Below, piece by piece: positions 39,093 through 48,047 of a stretch of 64,000 nucleotides of DNA. Position 1 is the first letter of the stretch. The number at the start of each line of letters is the position of its first letter. Both the position numbers and the translations under genes were made by a program. The DNA comes from Gammaproteobacteria bacterium (GTDB lineage Bacteria; Pseudomonadota; Gammaproteobacteria; Eutrophobiales; Eutrophobiaceae): positions 64,001-128,000 of the forward strand of contig CAXMWX010000012.1 of NCBI GenBank assembly GCA_963422205.2, given 5' to 3'. The notes beneath the pieces are model-generated. The model saw only the letters and a list, made by a program, of their open reading frames with translations. It searched no databases and had not been told where the DNA came from.

Positions 39093-39647
39093 TCACGAAA
39101 AGAGCTGCTTATAATTTATCGAACCAGCACTTCCTACCTTCAAGCACAACATTTTTTCAGGGCTATTATTGGCTTTGTGTTTTTGTTTTTTGACAAATTC
39201 AGTAGGTCTTTTGTTGAGTTTAAAATTTACGATAGCCACAAAGTATTGTTTTTCTGAAGCCGACTTTAAAAAATTAGGATGATTAAAAAATCTTCTGCCA
39301 ATGACAATCAGATAATCCATTAGACATTGGGCTCCTATCAACTGTTGTTTGATGTGTTTTTTTCCATTGGTTTTTCCATATTTCAATTCAACAAATATGA
39401 TTTCATATTCATTGACGATAATATAATCCGCACGTTTGCAAAAGTCCTTATTGTTCTGGCAGTCGATAATTTTATCCGGTGAAAAATTATCTGCCTTTAT
39501 AATCAAAGTTTCACTCGGTAATTTTTTAACATAAATACCGTACTCTTTCCACGTCTCAAATAATTTTGCCTCCCTTTTTCCCGGATCAATATCAACAAGA
39601 GCGGTGGGGTTTAGCAGTTTTTCAAGTAGACAAAAATCAGTCGTCAT
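39093..39647 (-). CDS. Hypothetical protein, putative PD-(D/E)XK nuclease
   Basis: KRADYII...FVELK...KQQL motif; AT-rich; overlaps ATPase stop. Confidence 0.65.
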   Translation of the reverse strand: MTTDFCLLEKLLNPTALVDIDPGKREAKLFETWKEYGIYVKKLPSETLIIKADNFSPDKIIDCQNNKDFCKRADYIIVNEYEIIFVELKYGKTNGKKHIKQQLIGAQCLMDYLIVIGRRFFNHPNFLKSASEKQYFVAIVNFKLNKRPTEFVKKQKHKANNSPEKMLCLKVGSAGSINYKQLFS

Positions 39648-41004
39648 CGCCGTCCCATATAATCCTGTCTTCAATGCGATTCATGTCATTAATGGTGTCG
39701 TCAAAGCTGCGTACTTCAATCCCTGACTGTGGTTCAATCGGTGCTTTCGTTAAAGTCTGGCAGTTTGTTTTTCTCTCATTACCAGGAATTAACACCTTTG
39801 CTTTTTCTGCAATATATACTTTTACCTTATCTGCTGAAATCAGTGCCTCATCAGGATAGCCCTCCTCTTGTGCAATTTTTTTCAGATAGGACTTGTCCTG
39901 ATTCAACAGGATCAATGTGTTTATTTCCTTAATAAAATAATCACTGTGGGTGGTAACAAAGACATTAACTCCGGCATTGACCAAGCAGGCAAACAATCGC
40001 GCTACGAGCCGTTGGTTTTCAGGATGCAGATTGAGTTCAGGCTCATCAACCATCAAAAGATCACCCGGTTTAGCCAGATGATGCAGATAAAAGCCAATAT
40101 CCAGCAAGGAGCGCACTGCGCTGGAACTTTCACTCATTGATAATCGGGTTGATTTTCCAGTAGGCTTAAATTGCACGCCAAGGTTTTTTTTCATGCCATA
40201 GCTGCCACCAATCAGCTCGGCAAATGTGTTCAGAATCTGCGGGCATTGTTTAGCGATATGGCTGGTTTTTTTTGATATATTTTCCAGGTTACGGGTAAAT
40301 TCGACATTAACCTCAACGGGCAGGGCATAATCTTGCGTGCCTTCCAGCAAAAGCTTAAATGGATCAATTTCTTTGGCCCTGCTGATTTCTTTGAGCAAGC
40401 GATTGCGGGCGAAATCCAGTTCTCTGTAGAAAATTGCAGCACCAGTGCGCTCGGCGCTGGCAATAAAGGAACTGGGGAAAACATCCGCAAAGATAATATA
40501 ATAAATCACCTCTGCTATGTAGTCGTTTGGTAAATTTGATCGTGCTCCCGATTCTTTCAGAAAAGCAATTGTTACCATAAAAGAACCGGATTCTTTTTCA
40601 ACAGCAAAAAAATCATTACTCCTGTTAAAAAATTCCCTGTTTAGAATATGCTCTCTGAAATCAAACGAATCGACACTAAATACAAAAGAAGAATCACGAA
40701 AAAATTTCTCATCAGAAGAAAATATATTTGGTAATTCTTTAGTGTACTCCTTGCTTGCTTCTTTAATAATTTCGGGAATGAGTGGGATGACTTGTTCAAG
40801 ATTGATTTCTGTTTGCATATATTTGTAACTAATTTTTTTGGATATTTGTCTTTTCAACAAAAATCTTTGTATATGCAAAAACCCAAAAAGCGCATAGGTA
40901 GCATAGGTTTTCCCGGTATTATTTTTACCGCAGATAATCGTCAGTTTTCCCAGCTCAAATTCCCCGTAACGCAAAGCGCCCAGATTTTCCAGTCTGATCT
41001 TCAT
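39637..41004 (-). CDS. ABC-type (AAA_15/AAA_21-like) ATPase
   Basis: Walker A GKNNTGKT, signature-like SSSAV, Walker B MVDEPE.NLHP, H-loop TTHS; ATGA overlap with mod. Confidence 0.88.
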   Translation of the reverse strand: MKIRLENLGALRYGEFELGKLTIICGKNNTGKTYATYALFGFLHIQRFLLKRQISKKISYKYMQTEINLEQVIPLIPEIIKEASKEYTKELPNIFSSDEKFFRDSSFVFSVDSFDFREHILNREFFNRSNDFFAVEKESGSFMVTIAFLKESGARSNLPNDYIAEVIYYIIFADVFPSSFIASAERTGAAIFYRELDFARNRLLKEISRAKEIDPFKLLLEGTQDYALPVEVNVEFTRNLENISKKTSHIAKQCPQILNTFAELIGGSYGMKKNLGVQFKPTGKSTRLSMSESSSAVRSLLDIGFYLHHLAKPGDLLMVDEPELNLHPENQRLVARLFACLVNAGVNVFVTTHSDYFIKEINTLILLNQDKSYLKKIAQEEGYPDEALISADKVKVYIAEKAKVLIPGNERKTNCQTLTKAPIEPQSGIEVRSFDDTINDMNRIEDRIIWDGDDD

Positions 41005-43466
41005 ATACCCACCTCTACCACCTTCATCGTATCGTTGCCGAAAATATCCACCACCTTGACGGCGACCTTGCGACGTCCGGGCGCACACTCCCTGGCAGTG
41101 CTTTGCAGTTCCAGTGAACGGTCTTTGCGAGTACGGAAAGATTGCCATTCGTTCTCGAACACATAATCCCCCGTCCAGACTGTTGACCAATCCCCCGTTT
41201 CCTCATTGTGCACAGGGATCATCTCCCGTTTGCTCTCGTAATCAAAATCCACCGACCAGTAATCCACCCAGTCCGTCCAGTGCCCGGTCAGGGCTTCCCG
41301 GCTCACCATCCCGCCCTTATCCTTGCTGACTTTAATGATCTGCCCCTGCTCCACCACGATCTTGCTGCCCTTGTTTTTCAGCGATGCCTCCACATTGGCG
41401 ATGGAGTCCTGGGAATAAAAAACCGAAAAATCCGTCAACTCCACCGCAACGGTATGACCTTTAATATGCGGTTTCACCTCGATATAGGACACATCATGGA
41501 ACACCACCTGGTTCTTCTCCACCGCCCGCTTGTCAAACACATCACGCGGTATGTACTTCAAGGCCAGATCAATGCCCTTGTCCGAGGCTTCATCCAGGAT
41601 ATTCGGAAACAGCCCCATCTCGAACTCAAAAGCAAGCACATCGACCCGGGTGATATGATTTTTGCGGCATTCCAGGATAATCTCCTCAACAAACAGGCGC
41701 GTCACCGGCAGGTTCACCGGGCCGACAGCCACCAGCCGCCCGGCCTTTTTGCCGTGAAAGGTCTTAAAGCCGGTCACCGGTTCGGCGCGATAAGCACGCA
41801 GGATGAGATCCAGAAAAGCCGCTTCCTTCTCTTGCAGTTGTTTTTGTTTTTCCGCCGCACGCAGGTTCGGATTCACACCTGCCTGCCGCGCAGCGGCCTC
41901 GTCCCATTTTCGCAATCCGTCCTTTGCAGATTCACGTTTTAGCCACTCTCTGCCAAAGCCGGTTTTTAAATGCTTTTCCCTTGCCACGGCTTCCTGGCGA
42001 CTGTTGAAATACTCATAATGAATGACCGCCACCGGCTTATGTCTTTTTGTCCAGTCCACGCGACCCTGCTTGTGCTCTTCCCAACGCCTTGACAAATCAT
42101 TCGTTTGGCCGACATAAAAACCATCGTTTTCACATGCGATCACATACACGTAAAAAAGCGGATGCGGTGCCTGCCCCTGCGCTGCAAGCAGGCGGGCAGG
42201 CAGGCCGATATAATGTTGCCGTTCATATTTGCCGAGATTCAGGATTTCAAAAGCACGCCAGGGTCTGCGCTCTGCCTTTAGCTGCCGTTGCACGCCGATC
42301 AACCGCTTGCGCGTGGTGTGGATGGCGAATTTGCCCAGGTCTGAGCCAATCCACTTGCGCCCCAGCTTCTCGGCCACGGCACAGGTGGTGCCGGAACCAC
42401 AGAAAAAATCCGCGACCAGATCGCCCTCGTTGGAGGAGGCTTTGATAATGCGCTCGAGTAATTTTTCCGGCTTTTGGGTGGGGTAGTTGACTCTTTCCTT
42501 AGCCACCGGATTTATAAATGGAACTAGCCAAACATCACTTAATGGTTTGCCTTTCGTTGCTACGTAGTGAACTTGATATTTGCCAGAGGCAATCATCTTT
42601 TTCACTTTTGGATTTTCTTTATCATAAACTACCAATCCGTTGCTTCCATAGCCGCCGCCAATCAAGTATCCCTTTTCATATTTTTCTTTTAAATTATCAG
42701 TAATGAATCTTTGTTGATTGAAACTATGATTTTGGCTTTTAGCATAAAAATATATAACATCATGATTTTTTTGATACGCTTTACTCGGAGATGTCCATTT
42801 TTCGTAGTGCCATATGATTTCATTCTTGAGAGCATGTTTCCCAAACACCTCATCCATCACCAGCCGCAGCAAACCATTCACCCGCCAGTTGCAATGCACA
42901 TAGATGCTGCCATCCTCGGCCAGCAGGTCGCGCATCAGGATCAGCCGCTCGTAGATCATGGCGATAAAGCTGTCCTGCCCATGCCCCCAGGTGTCGCGGT
43001 AGGCGATTTCTTCCAGGATATTAGGTTGCTTGGTAAAGGTGTCCTCGCCGATGGCGATGTCCATAGAAAAATCCGCGCCCACATCAAAGGGCGGGTCAAT
43101 ATAAATCAGCTTGACGCCGCCCTGCTTCTCAATCGCTTCGCGCATCGGGCCGTTTTTAAGCGACGACAGGATCAACTTGTTATCGCCCCAGATGAGCTTG
43201 TTCGTCCAGCCTAATCGCTGCCGGCCCGTCGCCGGATCTAACCAGTCACTTTGCATTGTTACATCCTTTTCCGCCCGCGGCTCATCCACATGCTCAATGG
43301 TCTGAAACGGCAGCACCACATGACACACCTCATTGCTCTTGCCATTCCAGAGAAGCTCCACCTCCCGCTTGTCCTCAAACAACACAAAGCGGTAGTGCTC
43401 CGGCAGCGGCCTGCCCGCATCCAGACAGCGAATAATGTCTTGCTTTTCATTGTCGGTGAGTTTCAT
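41001..43466 (-). CDS. mod: Type III R-M Mod subunit (amino-methyltransferase, probably N6-adenine) with inserted GIY-YIG domain
   Basis: IYIDPPF, YPTQKP, DFFCGSGT; AVKVVDIFGN C-terminus; upstream of res. Confidence 0.92.
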   Translation of the reverse strand: MKLTDNEKQDIIRCLDAGRPLPEHYRFVLFEDKREVELLWNGKSNEVCHVVLPFQTIEHVDEPRAEKDVTMQSDWLDPATGRQRLGWTNKLIWGDNKLILSSLKNGPMREAIEKQGGVKLIYIDPPFDVGADFSMDIAIGEDTFTKQPNILEEIAYRDTWGHGQDSFIAMIYERLILMRDLLAEDGSIYVHCNWRVNGLLRLVMDEVFGKHALKNEIIWHYEKWTSPSKAYQKNHDVIYFYAKSQNHSFNQQRFITDNLKEKYEKGYLIGGGYGSNGLVVYDKENPKVKKMIASGKYQVHYVATKGKPLSDVWLVPFINPVAKERVNYPTQKPEKLLERIIKASSNEGDLVADFFCGSGTTCAVAEKLGRKWIGSDLGKFAIHTTRKRLIGVQRQLKAERRPWRAFEILNLGKYERQHYIGLPARLLAAQGQAPHPLFYVYVIACENDGFYVGQTNDLSRRWEEHKQGRVDWTKRHKPVAVIHYEYFNSRQEAVAREKHLKTGFGREWLKRESAKDGLRKWDEAAARQAGVNPNLRAAEKQKQLQEKEAAFLDLILRAYRAEPVTGFKTFHGKKAGRLVAVGPVNLPVTRLFVEEIILECRKNHITRVDVLAFEFEMGLFPNILDEASDKGIDLALKYIPRDVFDKRAVEKNQVVFHDVSYIEVKPHIKGHTVAVELTDFSVFYSQDSIANVEASLKNKGSKIVVEQGQIIKVSKDKGGMVSREALTGHWTDWVDYWSVDFDYESKREMIPVHNEETGDWSTVWTGDYVFENEWQSFRTRKDRSLELQSTARECAPGRRKVAVKVVDIFGNDTMKVVEVGI
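41878..42204 (-). mobile_element. 327-bp in-frame insertion encoding a GIY-YIG nuclease domain, bounded by 10-bp inverted repeats
   Basis: CCTGCCTGCC (41878-41887) / GGCAGGCAGG (42195-42204); FYVY...YVGQT..L.RR..EH...ARE..LK; deletion leaves an in-frame HYIGVNPNLR junction. Confidence 0.8.
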
Positions 43467-43556
43467 CTTCTTTTATTTACTGCCGAGGGTTGGCGCACTG
43501 GTAGGCCGCGCATCGCCTGTGACCGGCTTGGCTTTTGCAAGGTTCAAGCGTAAAAA

Positions 43557-43880
43557 TTACTCGCCATCCGCGCCTTTGTCAGCTATCCGATCAAACACGC
43601 GGTTGAGGATACGCGCCATCTCCTGCATACCCATGCGCCTTGCCAGTGGTATCAGGATCAGCAATTCAAGCACCAGGAGCGCAAGGGGGCCGCCGGATGA
43701 GGGCATCACTGTGAAAAAAACAATATTGAACAAAAGCAGCACGATAACGATAAAAAAGAATCGCTCTTCCCGGCGCACATCCTTCTCATGCGCCAACTGC
43801 TCTTCCAGTTCAGAAATCTGCTGCTCTTGCGTGGATGCCTTCCCCTGCGCGGACGCGGTAATCGGCTTGTTATCACCCAT
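43557..43880 (-). CDS. Small coiled-coil + 2-TM membrane protein, putative toxin
   Basis: Two hydrophobic stretches; 18 bp downstream of the Panacea gene. Confidence 0.65.
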   Translation of the reverse strand: MGDNKPITASAQGKASTQEQQISELEEQLAHEKDVRREERFFFIVIVLLLFNIVFFTVMPSSGGPLALLVLELLILIPLARRMGMQEMARILNRVFDRIADKGADGE

Positions 43881-43898
43881 GTGTTTGCAGCGCGTATT

Positions 43899-44333
43899 CT
43901 ATATCTGCTGATACTCAGCAAGGATGTCTTGATCGGGAATAATTACGCCCCGACTGCGGGGCCTGTAATGACGAGACCAGGCGCCCCCTTCACGATGGGT
44001 TGCCGCGACCAGACCAGCCGCAGTAACACCCTTTAAACTGTCCCAGGCTTCATCAAGAATATCTCGCACTGCGCCCGCCGGCAGGCTGGCTTGATCGTGA
44101 AAAATATTCTCCACGGGATCAGCACCAAACACCTTCGCCCGATGATAAAGCACAGGATGCACCGGCCCGTAATCCCAGGCTTGAAAACAACCCGTCACCA
44201 ACGGCTCGCCACCCGTTCTACCAAGATGAAACATGTGCGCCAGATACAGGATTTTTTGCAACTGCAAATTGGACAAAGACCAGCCAGAGCGTTTGGCAAG
44301 GTGTTTCGCCGCTTGCAGAACAGGTGCCGTCAT
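43899..44333 (-). CDS. Panacea domain (DUF4065/GepA/SocA-like) antitoxin
   Basis: SNLQLQKILYLAH, FQAWDYGPV...LY, L.AATH...AW. Confidence 0.88.
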   Translation of the reverse strand: MTAPVLQAAKHLAKRSGWSLSNLQLQKILYLAHMFHLGRTGGEPLVTGCFQAWDYGPVHPVLYHRAKVFGADPVENIFHDQASLPAGAVRDILDEAWDSLKGVTAAGLVAATHREGGAWSRHYRPRSRGVIIPDQDILAEYQQI

Positions 44334-44610
44334 CGCAATTTTCCCGAGTTAGAATTTCATGTCAAGAATAGCAGACGGGGCCTGCCCGACAAAGCCGATC
44401 TTCGCATAAATGGTTGCAGGTGTATGAAACCGGCCTGCCGATGCAGGTTTCCATTTCGGTTCTATGTGCCTGATTTTAGATGAATTGATCCTCAATTAAT
44501 CAGCAGCATGTCTGCGGTGGGACAACCCGCCGTTGATGCGACCGATTTTCAGCGCAGCATCGATCCATGCACTATACTTTGATCAGAGTTGCTTTTACAT
44601 GGGAGGGATT

Positions 44611-45000
44611 ATGACCCGACTTCGAATGACCAGAGCAGGTGTGCCGCTTGTGCTTACCGCCTGTATCAGCAACATGGCCGGATGCGCCGGTATCCAGCTT
44701 GAGGATGAGTACGCCACGCATTATCTCATCTTAGGGTTAGGCATGGTATCGGTGCCGGATGGCAATCCTACCGGTACCCGGGCGGTGCGTACACACACGC
44801 TCGGAGCCAGTGTTTCTGCCGGTGTGGACAAGGCGCTCACGTTGGGCTACGCCCACAAGACCCGGCTGGTCATACCCGCTGATGCAGAGAATACCTGTAT
44901 GGAGATTGCAGACACGGCTGGTGGCATCATGCGGGTGCAGACCTGTGATGCTTTTCTCAAAGAAACAGCTACCACTATCTCCAACATCCACTGCCCATGA
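44611..45000 (+). CDS. Hypothetical putative lipoprotein
   Basis: GGGAGG RBS; MAGC lipobox-like; no family recognised. Confidence 0.6.
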   Translation: MTRLRMTRAGVPLVLTACISNMAGCAGIQLEDEYATHYLILGLGMVSVPDGNPTGTRAVRTHTLGASVSAGVDKALTLGYAHKTRLVIPADAENTCMEIADTAGGIMRVQTCDAFLKETATTISNIHCP

Positions 45001-45013
45001 GGAGGAAAAACCA

Positions 45014-45754
45014 ATGAAAAATCGTTATGTCATGTTATTTATCGTATTGATAGCATTAGCAGGGTGTGGCGGCGCAAATAAACTCAAAGAACATCACGTT
45101 CTGGCCACGACTACCACGGTGATTGGAGTGGATGTATCACAAGATCCGGCCAGCAACCAACCACATGGAAAGCTGGGCTATTACAGGAGCGAATTGGCCC
45201 TTGTGCCGACCAACAGGACGTATTTGTATTGTAAAGACAAGGCGCAAAAAAACTGTATTCAAATTCCCGGTGATTCCGAAGGTGCCGCCAAGTCAGCGGA
45301 GGTGCTAATGGAGCTTAAATATGACAGTGGCGTACTTAACCCTATTAAAGGCGGTATTTACCAACGCCTGGCGGTAGGGGAGAAGGCTGTGGGAGAACCC
45401 GGCGCAGCACTGATGTTTGCCAAGAACCCGGAAGGAGAGATAGATAAAAATTCTACTGATGCTATTGATAATCTTGCCATGCTTGAGAGAGCAGAAAAAG
45501 CTGGTTATGTAGAGAGTCTTATGAACCACAAGCGAATTGACGATATTATGCTGCACGTTGCGCCAGAAGACATGATGGATAATTCAAAACTTGACACATT
45601 GCTGAATAAAGCGGAAATAAAAACGAAGGATAGAGAGCATATTGCACAAGCAACAAGTACAAATGATTTAAGAGGTCGGCTTGATGTTATGACCACGGAT
45701 TCTCTGGAATCATTACACCGGGCATTATTATCAATTAAGAGTAAAGCAAAGTAG
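45014..45754 (+). CDS. Hypothetical lipoprotein
   Basis: GGAGG RBS; MKNRYVMLFIVLIALAGC lipobox. Confidence 0.75.
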   Translation: MKNRYVMLFIVLIALAGCGGANKLKEHHVLATTTTVIGVDVSQDPASNQPHGKLGYYRSELALVPTNRTYLYCKDKAQKNCIQIPGDSEGAAKSAEVLMELKYDSGVLNPIKGGIYQRLAVGEKAVGEPGAALMFAKNPEGEIDKNSTDAIDNLAMLERAEKAGYVESLMNHKRIDDIMLHVAPEDMMDNSKLDTLLNKAEIKTKDREHIAQATSTNDLRGRLDVMTTDSLESLHRALLSIKSKAK

Positions 45755-46997: not shown

Positions 46998-48047
46998 ATG
47001 ACATCCTCCTGTGCCGTCTATTTTGCCGGGCCGGAACAACCCGGACGGCTACGCCACCTGCTGGCAGAGCGCATCGCCGCCACCCCGGCCGGGGGATACA
47101 TTCACTGGGTAACGTATTACTTTCGCGACCGGCAGCTGGCACAGGCACTGATTGATGCCCACCAGCGCGGCGTGACGGTGACCATCTGCCTGGCCGCCCG
47201 GCCACGCACAGCCGATGCCAACGATGCCGTGATCAATATGCTGACAGCCGCGCCCGGCGATGGTTTGCGGCGCATCTCCCTGCCCGGCCTGCCCGCTCCC
47301 GCCGGCCGCAGCTTAGGTATGCAGCTGCATGAGAAAATCTATTGTTTTTCTCACCCGATGCCGTGCGCCTTCATCGGCTCTTTCAATCCCTCTGGCGATG
47401 TGCCGGAGGAGCGGCCGGACATCATCACCGAGATCGGCGATCAGGATCGTGGTTATAATTACCTGGTCGCCCTCACCGAGCCACGGCTGGTGGCCGTACT
47501 GACCGAACATGCACAGCGAATGTATCAACATCCGCCCACCTTAACCGGCGCCCTGCTGCATCGCCTCTCCCACAGGGCCAACCTGTGTGTCAAGGCCGAT
47601 CATACCCATCTCTACTTCTGGCCGCGCCAGAGAGGGCAGCCGCTGATCGATCTCCTCGGCCAGTTCGGCCGGGGCGCTGTGGTACGCATCGCCGCCTCAC
47701 ACATCAGCGCCGGGCCAGCCATCCATGCCATGATTGCGCTGGCCCGGCGGGGGGCACGGCTGGACATCCTGGCCTCAGCCTCGCTACGGCGCATCAGCCA
47801 CAAAACAGAGCAGCAACTGCGCGGGGCCGGCATTGGCATCCGGCGCATCGGCAATAAGAGCACGATGCCCATGCACTTGAAATTCATGCTGGTAGCATAC
47901 CGGCAGCAGCGCTGGTCGGTGTTCGGCAGCGTGAACTGGACCTGGCCATCGCTTTGGCTGAATTATGAAGTCGCCGCCATTTCCCGTGACCCGGAGCTGT
48001 ATGCCGCCTTTGCCCATATATGGGCGGTGCTGCAAGATAAGGAATAA
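46998..48047 (+). CDS. Phospholipase D superfamily protein (two HxK motifs)
   Basis: LHEKIY...GSFN and MHLKFM...GSVN. Confidence 0.82.
   Translation: MTSSCAVYFAGPEQPGRLRHLLAERIAATPAGGYIHWVTYYFRDRQLAQALIDAHQRGVTVTICLAARPRTADANDAVINMLTAAPGDGLRRISLPGLPAPAGRSLGMQLHEKIYCFSHPMPCAFIGSFNPSGDVPEERPDIITEIGDQDRGYNYLVALTEPRLVAVLTEHAQRMYQHPPTLTGALLHRLSHRANLCVKADHTHLYFWPRQRGQPLIDLLGQFGRGAVVRIAASHISAGPAIHAMIALARRGARLDILASASLRRISHKTEQQLRGAGIGIRRIGNKSTMPMHLKFMLVAYRQQRWSVFGSVNWTWPSLWLNYEVAAISRDPELYAAFAHIWAVLQDKE

Follow-up and report, generated by a model that had tools for sequence, protein, structure and literature searches.

A GIY-YIG nuclease cassette with inverted-repeat ends lies in frame in a type III-like DNA methyltransferase gene and probably belongs to a widespread selfish family

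Introduction

Among described systems, those that appear closest to the element reported here are the Ssn nucleases, which, in the accessible text of their report, cut single-stranded DNA (ssDNA) beside hairpin repeats; ssn genes often have hairpin repeats on both sides, and the NTS-ssnA-NTS arrangement resembles an insertion sequence according to its authors (Chenal et al., 2025; PMC11893778). A term search of that accessible text returned no mention of fusion, in-protein insertion or domain architecture. The same text characterizes the IS200/IS605 elements as very small, free of target-site duplication and dependent on secondary structure at their ssDNA ends (PMC11893778).

A second group of relatives comprises Slx1, which to judge from the titles of its structure entries processes branched DNA, and the UPF0213 (YhbQ-like) proteins; both are cellular stand-alone or multi-domain proteins. 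The Rickettsia palindromic elements are short selfish sequences with palindromic ends that are tolerated in frame in protein genes; they carry no gene for an enzyme, and a genome has multiple copies of them. Inteins require Cys, Ser or Thr nucleophiles at their junctions, homing elements do not depend on conserved inverted repeats at their termini, and IS200/IS605 elements use a HUH/Y1 transposase that forms covalent intermediates. In the literature covered, outside which most subscription journals lie, we came across no account of GIY-YIG elements that lie in frame and are bounded by inverted repeats. Here we describe such an insert, and the family to which it belongs.

Results

The insert and its host gene

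The DNA analysed, hereafter the window, is a stretch of 64,000 nt (positions 64,001–128,000 of contig CAXMWX010000012.1) from the genome of a Gammaproteobacteria bacterium (Eutrophobiales; Eutrophobiaceae; GCA_963422205.2, genome G000). The insert lies in a mod gene (Table 1) whose product would be about 712 aa without it and 821 aa with it, and in which the PF01555 methylase domain occupies residues 118–384 (Pfam, E 1.3e-50). This N6/N4 methylase domain, together with the nearby PF04851 Res gene, marks the protein as the Mod of a type III restriction-modification system.

Table 1. Positions in the window of the cassette, its parts and the neighbouring genes
Feature	Position	Strand	Remarks
Res-type helicase subunit, PF04851	36402..39080	-	downstream of Mod, two ORFs in between
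AAA_15/AAA_21 ATPase ORF	39637..41190	-	overlaps Mod 3' end
Mod, type III-like DNA methyltransferase (insert host)	41001..43466	-	P0001, 821 aa; PF01555
Asp716 codon GAT of Mod	41319..41321	-	empty form of second site, filled in homologous Mod L018
GIY-YIG cassette, 327 bp / 109 codons, in frame	41878..42204	-	lies between bases 2 and 3 of Gly codon GG|T
Right terminal inverted repeat GGCAGGCAGG	41878..41887	-	encodes R-Q-A-G; family consensus GCGCGGCAGGCAGG
GIY-YIG catalytic core, residues 438-504 of Mod	41955..42155	-	PF01541
Copy-specific 27-nt insertion inside left end	42175..42201	-	gap at alignment A4 columns 4-30, 5/5 nearest relatives aligned
Left terminal inverted repeat CCTGCCTGCC	42195..42204	-	encodes ..G-L-P-A; family consensus CCTGCCTGCGCCGCG

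Read on the minus strand, the junctions are CAT TAT ATC GG[C CTG CCT GCC ... CGG CAG GCA GG]T GTG AAT, the bracket enclosing 42204..41878, and removal of the bracketed DNA, which supplies residues 421–529 of Mod, leaves HYIGVN. The CCTGCCTGCC start and the GGCAGGCAGG end form a perfect 10-nt inverted repeat. The insert has neither a start nor a stop codon of its own (CTT precedes TTT TAC GTG TAT) and encodes a GIY-YIG domain and no transposase. A first-pass annotation of this DNA had described the unit in just these terms, as a 327-bp, in-frame, inverted-repeat-bounded and transposase-free insert that leaves a clean junction on removal. The GG target duplication that it further considered possible is not supported: the GG is the split Gly codon GG|T, and in 45 distinct flank pairs GA mostly precedes the element and C or T follows it.

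The terminal 10-mer has four occurrences in the window, where shuffles give an expectation of 0.30; the other two sites (3851 and 62418) have no element features and look like chance. Genome-wide, CCTGCCTGCC occurs 73 times versus 47 expected under an order-4 Markov model, an excess that we ascribe to oligonucleotide bias, and since the flanks of these sites are not shared the 10-mer alone is weak evidence; the inverted-repeat ends owe their significance to conservation across the family.

The 27-nt insertion specific to the window copy creates a local hairpin (about 42165–42207) from the left repeat and an inverted-repeat-like GGGGCAGGCA, which folds at -15.6 kcal/mol (z -2.18; 5/200 shuffles fold as well). 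The REP-like 5' hairpin of the first-pass annotation is therefore a real structure but one peculiar to this copy, and the link to REP elements drawn from it is not supported: there is one copy, the 10-mer has no repeat-family context, and no match to PF01797 (Y1/RAYT) was found in G000, which is 97.97% complete. A search of 41700–42400 against Rfam (E<=10) returned just four sub-threshold, chance-level matches, none reaching E 0.1. With a single genome copy, a left end rearranged by 27 nt and its catalytic residues intact, the window copy is probably an old resident.

The nuclease domain

The PF01541 match has an E-value of 9.2e-17 and a score of 61.6 bits against a cut-off of 22.6 (Pfam), or 65.6 bits in the genome search. 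Alignment A2 has invariant Y30, G32, R40, E64, E76, K80, G84 and R85 and nearly invariant Y20 and H44; Y30, G32, R40, E64, E76, Y20 and H44 are all kept by the window copy, whose core has the Tyr, Gly, Arg, Glu, Glu and Lys that do not vary in the family. The catalytic residues, presumably the Tyr of GIY, the Tyr of YIG, Arg and Glu, are accordingly intact, as had been noted from the sequence at the outset. An AlphaFold2 model of the insert domain (pLDDT 87.7) gave as top Foldseek matches 1zg2, 1ywl, the Slx1 entries 4xlg, 7cq3 and 6seh and the UvrC N-terminal domain, at TM-scores of just 0.43–0.53; UPF0213 and Slx1 are the best fold matches, and 1ywl (E 4.5e-8) and 1zg2 (E 1.4e-6) are the closest solved relatives by sequence. 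Profile, catalytic residues and fold all place the domain in the GIY-YIG superfamily, and our best reading is a nuclease of Slx1/UPF0213/Ssn-like kind that would be nearest to the Ssn ssDNA nucleases.

Empty and filled sites among Mod homologues

Among the 119 Mod homologues listed, 117 carry PF01555 with no extra domain and are 688–774 aa long, and a further one, P0041, shares both the insert and its site with the window Mod, the ends of the P0041 insert being known as peptide (LPAP...ARQAG). In alignment A1, eight of nine homologues are without the insert and read HY(I/V)|G(V/L)(N/S) at the site. Empty sites read HYI|GVNPN, the form that the first-pass annotation had given, and in G021, a genome of the same family, the DNA of the empty site is CAC TAC ATC GGT GTC AAT. 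The Mod family holds insertions at two different sites, that of the window and that of the homologous Mod L018, where the filled form reads ..AAA GA[C CTG...CAG G]C AAA.. and of which Asp716 of the window Mod is the empty form. Both empty/filled comparisons, at the G021 site and at the Asp716/L018 site, fit simple insertion.

A quick tree of Mod needed two changes and was considered as evidence of two independent gains. This argument was dropped because the AU test did not reject P0001 and P0041 as one clade (p 0.51, the tree holding them together being 2.8 log-likelihood units better when constrained), and a single old insertion in the P0001/P0041 lineage is possible. Two sequencing runs of one study, which may be the source of this DNA, contain the filled form as contigs, without joints, and in these two runs with the locus no mobility event was seen directly; no RNA run with the locus was listed.

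Copies elsewhere and their hosts

A phmmer search with the 108-aa insert against 1.84 billion representative proteins gave 7755 matches at E<=1e-3, 450 of them at E<=1e-10. Among the 150 best of these 7755, the majority are internal to proteins of 200–1100 aa; the terminal peptide LPAP is found in 99/150, RQAG in 92/150 and both in 76/150, while among the Mod homologues used as a control each occurs in 1/119. A search by word index for longer proteins with the insert gave just ten matches, none with an informative name. Database searching for flanked copies, as the first-pass annotation had suggested, therefore succeeded, nearly the same ends being found at other sites in unrelated genes; the parallel search of its own genome yielded no further DNA copy, and at the protein level G000 has as relatives just an unrelated GIY-YIG-SprT ORF (38% identity) and UvrC. 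Three other genomes (G437, G438 and G439) have one copy each, and a single copy per genome, as in these and in G000, is unlike typical transposons. The strict end pattern was found in 0/401 genomes sampled from the window's phylum, its 11 matches in viral contigs were none of them confirmed, and tblastn at E<=1e-10 found no copy in plasmids.

Restriction and defence proteins (HsdS, HsdR, HsdM, Mod, type IIG, SNF2, PglZ) make up most of the hosts, which also include housekeeping ones (trigger factor, QueC, MsrB). Among the first 100 of the best 150 relatives, Pfam assigns HsdS to 51, GIY-YIG only to 26 and other domains to 23. The last group includes Mod, HsdR, HsdM, SNF2, DUF1156 and NOV_C, as well as trigger factor (2), QueC, TfoX, NDP-hexose dehydratase, NUDIX, a pseudouridine synthase, MsrB (2) and HPPK. 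The 59 metagenomic ORFs are divided among restriction hosts (8 HsdS, 11 HsdR, 6 Mod, 4 type IIG, 1 HsdM), others (10 SNF2/helicase, 3 DUF1156, 2 PglZ, 1 Fic, 2 SelR, 1 HGD-D) and GIY-YIG only (10). A subfamily of HsdR (L050, L057, L062, L064-L066, L071, L090) keeps the domain without repeat ends across diverged homologues, which fits a host function of the GIY-YIG domain in at least some lineages. In the element tree the host label changes at least 20 times over 44 labelled rows (minimum possible 11), and different hosts stand together within supported clades, as where L078 (SNF2) groups with L088 (DUF1156) at SH-aLRT 96.

The ends of the element and its target site

The CCTGCCTGCGCCGCG...GCGCGGCAGGCAGG ends are nearly invariant, synonymous positions included, in 47 non-identical metagenomic elements with 45 distinct flank pairs. 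Positions 1–12 and the last 14 are identical in 43–45 of 45, and each of positions 1–12 of the left consensus in 44–45 of 45. All 47 elements have a length that is a multiple of 3, the family ranging from 279 to 327 bp. The terminal codons CTG CCT GCG CCG ... CGG CAG GCA are each represented by one codon in 93–100% of 29 elements (CGG, CAG and GCA at the right end in 28–29 of the 29 aligned); at 30 internal amino-acid positions that are >=90% conserved, the share of the commonest codon is just 25–71%.

The ends are thereby constrained at the nucleotide level, and their covariation is that of a stem, with interruptions, of about 18 bp. In the specified end stem 90.4% of cells pair, versus 22–58% with the partner slid, and the covariation score is 0.083 versus 0.041 in shuffles, a value that 0/500 shuffles reach. 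Single stem pairs take several base combinations, as at 16-265 (AU 10, GC 5, CG 4, GU 2, other 8) and 19-262 (AU 6, GC 5, CG 4, GU 3, other 11); RNAalifold finds the terminal helix unprompted, and one element (L007) folded as ssDNA has its ends paired (z -3.13). The same covariation would also be produced by a single protein that binds the two ends in duplex form, and for this reason we infer the ssDNA stem rather than regard it as proven.

At the left flank G and A are each found in 35/45 flank pairs, and the base on the right is C or T in 39/45; no target-site duplication was found across the 45 distinct pairs. Insertion takes place after the second base of a codon, usually as GA|Y.

Age of the elements relative to host flanks

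In some hosts the sequence comparisons indicate that the element is much younger than the host alleles carrying it: L056 and L080 are 97–99% identical in their elements and 76–90% in their flanks, and for L080 and L096 the figures are 87–93% and 66–84%. L078 and L080 share a site, yet their elements are just 49–68% identical. Elements more alike than host flanks look like the product of homing, and with the same site occupied or empty among Mod homologues and the L056/L080 pattern in relatives, the homing-like character that had first been suggested for the insert is seen in its family; the other role suggested for it, that of arming the methyltransferase with a nuclease, is conceivable. No recent cross-gene jump (element >=80% identical, unrelated flanks) was found among 48 elements, because all pairs that are >=80% identical share the site of homologous hosts.

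Discussion

We consider the window insert to be one copy of a widespread family of selfish, in-frame GIY-YIG cassettes that probably act on their own paired ends, and we put the probability of this reading at roughly 0.65. The unit is discrete, is precisely present or absent at its site and occurs in many unrelated genes. Each cassette of 279–327 bp starts with CCTGCCTGC.. and ends with ..GCAGGCAGG, encodes just a GIY-YIG nuclease of some 90 residues that lacks start and stop codons, and lies between bases 2 and 3 of a host codon, usually that of Asp (GA|Y) and in the window Mod that of Gly (GG|T). Its first C restores the interrupted codon and its last GG, with the third base of the host, makes Gly; translation of the host protein would therefore continue across the cassette and yield the nuclease as an additional domain. 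By analogy with the hairpin-adjacent cutting of Ssn and the branched-DNA cutting of Slx1, the nuclease may then act on ssDNA whose two ends pair, and the breaks could favour copying of the cassette into the corresponding site of homologous genes, a homing-like spread accompanied by rare insertion at new GA|Y sites. A GIY-YIG hydrolase alone cannot join DNA, so the insertion step is not accounted for by the cassette nuclease by itself.

It is tempting to go further and to see in the cassettes a class of autonomous mobile element that has not been recognised before, in which a lone GIY-YIG enzyme would recognise the ssDNA stem of its own ends, borrow the promoter, the start codon and perhaps the DNA targeting of its host, and prefer restriction-modification and defence genes, homing as these move between cells. 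This extension is a tentative one, which we hold to be somewhat improbable as it stands; if it is true, the cassettes of 279–282 bp are among the smallest such elements. We know of no GIY-YIG enzyme that drives DNA transposition in bacteria, and a true case would be a new kind of mobile DNA, without gene boundaries and expressed solely within a host protein. Hundreds of 'HsdS/HsdR/Mod + GIY-YIG' architectures in databases would then represent parasitism and not functional fusions, which matters for the annotation of defence systems. The cassettes would also offer candidate sequence- and structure-specific ssDNA nucleases with a defined recognition stem of 15–20 nt, of practical interest after the Ssn work, and they raise the testable question of whether a hydrolytic nuclease and host repair are enough for precise, scar-free insertion and excision.

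The best of the rival explanations is the accretion of domains, a GIY-YIG module having been fused into restriction and defence proteins that gain cutting from it, with LPAP and RQAG as linkers. The strong enrichment of DNA-acting defence proteins among the hosts, the conservation of the catalytic residues and the HsdR subfamily without repeat ends are all as this explanation would have them, and one HsdR case was treated as a recent domain insertion in the accessible text of its report (Dunin-Horkawicz et al., 2006; PMC1564403). Linkers, however, would not fix synonymous codons at 93–100% in AT-rich and GC-rich hosts alike, nor would base-pair covariation be expected between their third-codon positions on the two sides. 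The cassette is moreover found in trigger factor, QueC, MsrB, HPPK, NUDIX and pseudouridine synthase, the closest Mod homologues listed are without it, and identity between elements far exceeds that between their host flanks; we therefore think accretion unlikely.

It is also rather unlikely that the insert is a non-autonomous, MITE-like cassette whose repeats are recognised in trans by a transposase or by host recombination and whose nuclease is cargo. Such a cassette would reconcile terminal inverted repeats with the lack of a known transposase, the single copy per genome and a strand transfer that is beyond a hydrolytic nuclease. Against a cargo role, though, the nuclease frame is all that is conserved alongside the ends in widely differing hosts, and it is under purifying selection at the protein level; nor do we find a Y1/RAYT transposase in G000, target duplication of the DDE-transposase type, or, in a non-systematic look at the loci examined, a linked partner gene.

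A single ancient insertion, now immobile in the Mod lineage and resembling the other copies by descent of the domain, would explain the one genome copy, the left end rearranged by 27 nt and the possible sister relationship of P0001 and P0041 (AU p 0.51). It may even hold for the window copy, but as an account of nearly identical ends in unrelated genes, of two different sites within the Mod family and of elements younger than their hosts it is very improbable. Least probable of all, to the point of being hardly credible, is an intein- or intron-like insert removed after translation or transcription to give a mature Mod without it: the position in frame within a conserved motif recalls inteins and the ends can pair in RNA too, but Pfam finds GIY-YIG and methylase domains and no Hint/intein domain, the junctions G|L and G|V have no intein nucleophiles, Rfam gives no family even at E 0.1, and nuclease and linkers fill all 94–109 codons.

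The proposed selfish cassette shares features with each of the systems named at the outset. Like an Ssn nuclease, as far as the accessible text of that report goes, it combines a minimal GIY-YIG nuclease, about 94 aa long, with inverted or hairpin DNA at either side of the coding sequence, and the hairpin-adjacent ssDNA cutting of Ssn is the activity that it would have by analogy (Chenal et al., 2025; PMC11893778). The ssn genes, in contrast, stand alone with start and stop, whereas the cassette has neither and is translated inside its hosts; its ends pair with each other and Ssn repeats each form a hairpin of their own. The published SRM pattern is found in 0/47 elements within 100 nt and not at all at 41601–42500 of the window (17 matches in G000, a raw count without shuffle control), and G000 lacks hundreds of repeat copies such as would compare with those of Ssn, as the frequency of CCTGCCTGCC given above indicates. 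Slx1 and UPF0213 proteins, the nearest solved relatives by sequence and fold, have no repeat ends and are not inserted in other genes.

With inteins and homing endonuclease genes the cassette has in common a selfish nuclease in frame in conserved parts of host genes, sites with both occupied and empty states, and a higher similarity between elements than between the host alleles around them. It differs from inteins in having no splicing domain, the nuclease staying in the host protein, and from homing elements in that the family occupies many non-homologous sites. It differs from the Rickettsia palindromic elements in encoding a conserved nuclease and in being single-copy in the genomes examined. 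Small size, no target duplication and secondary structure at the ends are shared with IS200/IS605, as these are presented in the accessible text (PMC11893778); the only protein of the cassette is, however, a hydrolytic GIY-YIG domain, and no Y1 was found in G000. Of what defines insertion sequences and MITEs, the cassette has the terminal inverted repeats, and it has neither a target duplication, nor a transposase of known class, nor several copies per genome.

Finally, a further case may already have been published. The accessible text on HsdR MCA0838 of Methylococcus capsulatus, which presents it as a single curiosity and does not mention repeats, in-frame mobility or a family, judged its GIY-YIG domain 'very recently inserted' (Dunin-Horkawicz et al., 2006; PMC1564403). 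By that published description the insert of MCA0838 is probably of the same family as the window cassette.

Insertion into the Mod methyltransferase gene

The minus-strand reading at the insert in Mod, the type III-like methyltransferase of the window, is CAT TAT ATC GG[C CTG CCT GCC ... GCG CGG CAG GCA GG]T GTG AAT, in which the bracketed segment has neither a start nor a stop codon of its own and has the perfect 10-nt inverted repeat CCTGCCTGCC / GGCAGGCAGG at its boundaries. The GIY-YIG domain lies at Mod residues 438–504, within the N6/N4 methylase (Pfam, E 9.2e-17). The inverted-repeat-bounded, in-frame insert of the first-pass annotation is thus confirmed and extends to a family: in our reading it belongs to a widespread family of GIY-YIG cassettes that lie in frame and are bounded by inverted repeats, and of which no description was found in the literature searched.

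Features in and around the Mod gene (window coordinates)
Feature	Position	Strand	Size	Remark
Mod gene	41001..43466	minus	821 aa	
GIY-YIG insert	42204..41878	minus	327 bp, 109 codons	bracketed segment
Hairpin-forming extra	42175-42201		27 nt	repeat-like, next to element end
Asp716 codon	41319-41321			GAT; empty form of the L018 site
ORFs around Mod	39093-39674, 43435-45754		193, 158, 331 aa	no Pfam match at E<=0.001
SocA/Panacea ORF	43899-44333			beside Pfam-less ORFs
PLD-like ORF	46998-48047			beside Pfam-less ORFs

Empty sites, which had been predicted, were found among the Mod homologs. Of the 119 listed, 117 (688–774 aa) carry the methylase domain alone and one, P0041 (813 aa), carries a GIY-YIG domain; the insert position is empty in eight of the nine homologs aligned, reading HY(I/V)|G(V/L)(N/S), and also in G021, a same-family genome, where it reads CAC TAC ATC GGT GTC AAT. 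On these comparisons the Gly codon of the window gene is split, GG|T, and the suspected GG duplication dissolves into this split codon and the terminal GG of the element itself. The same alignment places the insert of P0041, with peptide ends LPAP...ARQAG, at exactly the position of that in the window. The two inserts are 79% identical, as against 62–66% for the whole proteins, and a single old insertion at this site is possible, since a sister relationship between P0001 (the window Mod) and P0041 is compatible with the AU test (p 0.51). In L018, a further Mod homolog, the cassette occupies a second position (..AAA GA[C CTG ... CAG G]C AAA GAC...).

The window copy differs from its five nearest relatives, which are of the 300-bp class, by an extra 27 nt inside the left end, in which an inverted repeat-like GGGGCAGGCA pairs with the left repeat; this insertion accounts for the hairpin noted earlier at the 5' end. 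The window copy keeps its family-invariant residues and the outer 10 nt of either end. The proposed REP association was not supported, as neither a REP family nor a Y1 transposase is present in the genome (G000). Hairpin-forming extras of 21–27 nt of repeat-like sequence also lie next to element ends in other lineages, at the left end of L059 (309 bp, 282 + 27) and the right ends of L036 and L041 (303 bp, 282 + 21), the window copy being 300 + 27; folding was computed for the window copy and the other three hairpins were judged by eye.

With a Res-type helicase, an AAA_15/AAA_21 ATPase, a SocA/Panacea antitoxin-like ORF and a PLD-like ORF as neighbours, Mod appears to lie in a defence island that also contains unassigned genes. 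Elsewhere in G000 (C7:540725-540934; L003 1501-2271) a 256-aa ORF has an N-terminal GIY-YIG domain with 38% identity to the insert and a C-terminal part that is SprT-like by eye. The commonest 10-mers of this genome are dominated by a GCATTACGCTTCGGCCTCATTGA-containing repeat of about 170–190 copies, unrelated to the element.

The family and its hosts

A phmmer search of 1.84 billion representative proteins with the 108-aa insert gave 7755 matches at E<=1e-3, of which 450 reached E<=1e-10. In most of the best 150 the domain is internal to proteins of 200–1100 aa; LPAP occurs in 99, RQAG in 92 and both in 76 of these, and in the 119 listed Mod homologs, taken as a control, each occurs once. Copies at other sites, as had been anticipated, were found, with nearly the same ends recurring in unrelated genes. 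Among the first 100 of these 150 matches, Pfam assigned an HsdS domain to 51 and GIY-YIG as sole domain to 26, many of them fragments; the other 23 comprised Mod, HsdR, HsdM, SNF2, DUF1156 and NOV_C as well as trigger factor (2), QueC, TfoX, NDP-hexose 2,3-dehydratase, NUDIX, pseudouridine synthase, MsrB (2) and HPPK. In metagenomes, a scan yielded 340 confirmed stretches; in the best 80 of these, 52 of 64 distinct ORFs had at least 50 open-frame residues on each side of the domain, 7 of the remaining 12 being truncated by contig ends. Pfam labels for 59 metagenomic ORFs were HsdR (11), SNF2/helicase (10), GIY-YIG only (10), HsdS (8), Mod-type methylase (6), Eco57I/MmeI-type IIG (4), DUF1156 (3), PglZ (2), SelR (2), HsdM (1), Fic (1) and HGD-D (1). 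Copies can be adjacent or in tandem, P0241 reading ..GRTRQAG|LPAPRPGK.. and P0121 having two GIY-YIG stretches.

Ends, stem and target

End statistics were drawn from 47 non-identical elements with 45 distinct flank pairs. At each of the 12 leftmost and 14 rightmost positions, 43–45 of 45 agree, with the consensus CCTGCCTGCGCC(GCG) ... GCGCGGCAGGCAGG, and this holds across host flanks from very AT-rich to GC-rich. All lengths (279, 282, 285, 297, 300, 303 and 309 bp, 282 being commonest) are multiples of three. Among 29 aligned elements, each terminal position uses one and the same codon in 93–100% (CTG, CCT, GCG, CCG; CGG, CAG, GCA); at 30 internal positions with amino-acid conservation of at least 90%, the most frequent codon accounts for only 25–71%, which shows that the nuclease protein is under purifying selection, with synonymous sites saturated.

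Of the 45 flank pairs, 44 have C before CTG; the last two bases of the left flank are G (35/45) and A (35/45), and the final GG is followed by C (20), T (19), A (5) or G (1); no target duplication was seen across the 45 pairs. By-eye grouping of flank pairs gave GA at about 21 of about 31 sites. These flank statistics, together with the empty and filled forms of the G021 and Asp716/L018 sites, fit insertion of CCTGCC...GGCAGG between codon bases 2 and 3, usually of Asp (GA|Y), whereby the interrupted amino acid would be restored and one Gly added. In L084, a further case grouped with the adjacent or tandem copies, GCAGGCAGG lies 12 nt upstream of the left element end.

The terminal helix was recovered unaided by RNAalifold. 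In a structure specified by hand, comprising this helix and a second (columns 14–20 with 261–267), 90.4% of cells pair, compared with 22–58% with slid partners, and the covariation score of 0.083 (0.041 for shuffles) was reached by 0 of 500. Two pairs each show three Watson–Crick types (AU10/GC5/CG4 and AU6/GC5/CG4), their left partners being at third-codon positions in the commonest register, and ssDNA folding pairs both ends (window copy, z -1.26; L007, a related element, z -3.13). An end-to-end stem in ssDNA is thus supported, short of proof because one protein reading both ends as duplex DNA would be expected to give the same covariation.

Movement and the possible role of the nuclease

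At one SNF2-helicase site the elements of L056 and L080 are 97–99% identical, as against 76–86% for 900 nt of downstream and 83–90% for upstream flank; for L080 and L096 the values are 87–93% and 66–84%, and L078 has at this site an element only 49–68% identical to that of L080. From these comparisons the element is sometimes much younger than its host alleles and one site is used by different lineages, both of which are expected of homing-like spread. The element tree requires at least 20 host-label changes over 44 labelled rows (possible minimum 11) and hosts are mixed within supported clades. This tree, built from 94 columns, is poorly resolved, and 27 of its 45 inner branches lack support. 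Recent cross-gene transposition was not detected among 48 elements, every element pair at least 80% identical sharing a site in homologous hosts; each of four genomes checked has one copy. The mobile, selfish nature of the cassette is well supported.

The nearest solved relatives of the insert protein are the UPF0213 proteins EF2693 and BH0048, which, with Slx1, are also the best matches of its AlphaFold2 model (pLDDT 87.7). According to the available text of Chenal et al. (2025; PMC11893778), the 94-aa GIY-YIG proteins known as Ssn (cd10448) cleave ssDNA beside hairpin repeats, leaving dsDNA and RNA uncut, and in 42% of homologs ssn has such repeats on either side, an architecture likened by those authors to an insertion sequence. 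Ssn genes are, however, stand-alone, and their repeat pattern as published there was found in 0 of 47 elements; we therefore regard Ssn as the closest analogue to work from, rather than as the family to which the element belongs. By this analogy we infer that the element's own nuclease may drive movement by acting on its paired ends in ssDNA.

In some defence proteins the cassette may also have been exapted as a functional nuclease domain. This is suggested by an HsdR subfamily (L050, L057, L062, L064–L066, L071, L090) that retains a closely related GIY-YIG domain after HSDR_N without the LPAP/RQAG ends (..YNK|FYTYVIEC...AGRNKPF), possibly a copy that has become fixed or domesticated. The available text of Dunin-Horkawicz et al. 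(2006; PMC1564403) describes one HsdR whose Slx1-like GIY-YIG domain was judged 'very recently inserted'.

Another nuclease domain, the Vsr-like DUF559, is inserted in frame in a Mod homolog, an HsdR and a DUF1156 protein (P0050; L057:3189-3585; P0212 residues 565–669), representing a second kind of in-frame nuclease cassette. In P0050, one of the 119 listed Mod homologs, it lies at a different place from the GIY-YIG insert. In L057 a 19-nt inverted repeat (89% complementary) encloses the DUF559 segment, with the palindrome CCCCTCCT(C/T)TGGAGGGG present twice ahead of it.
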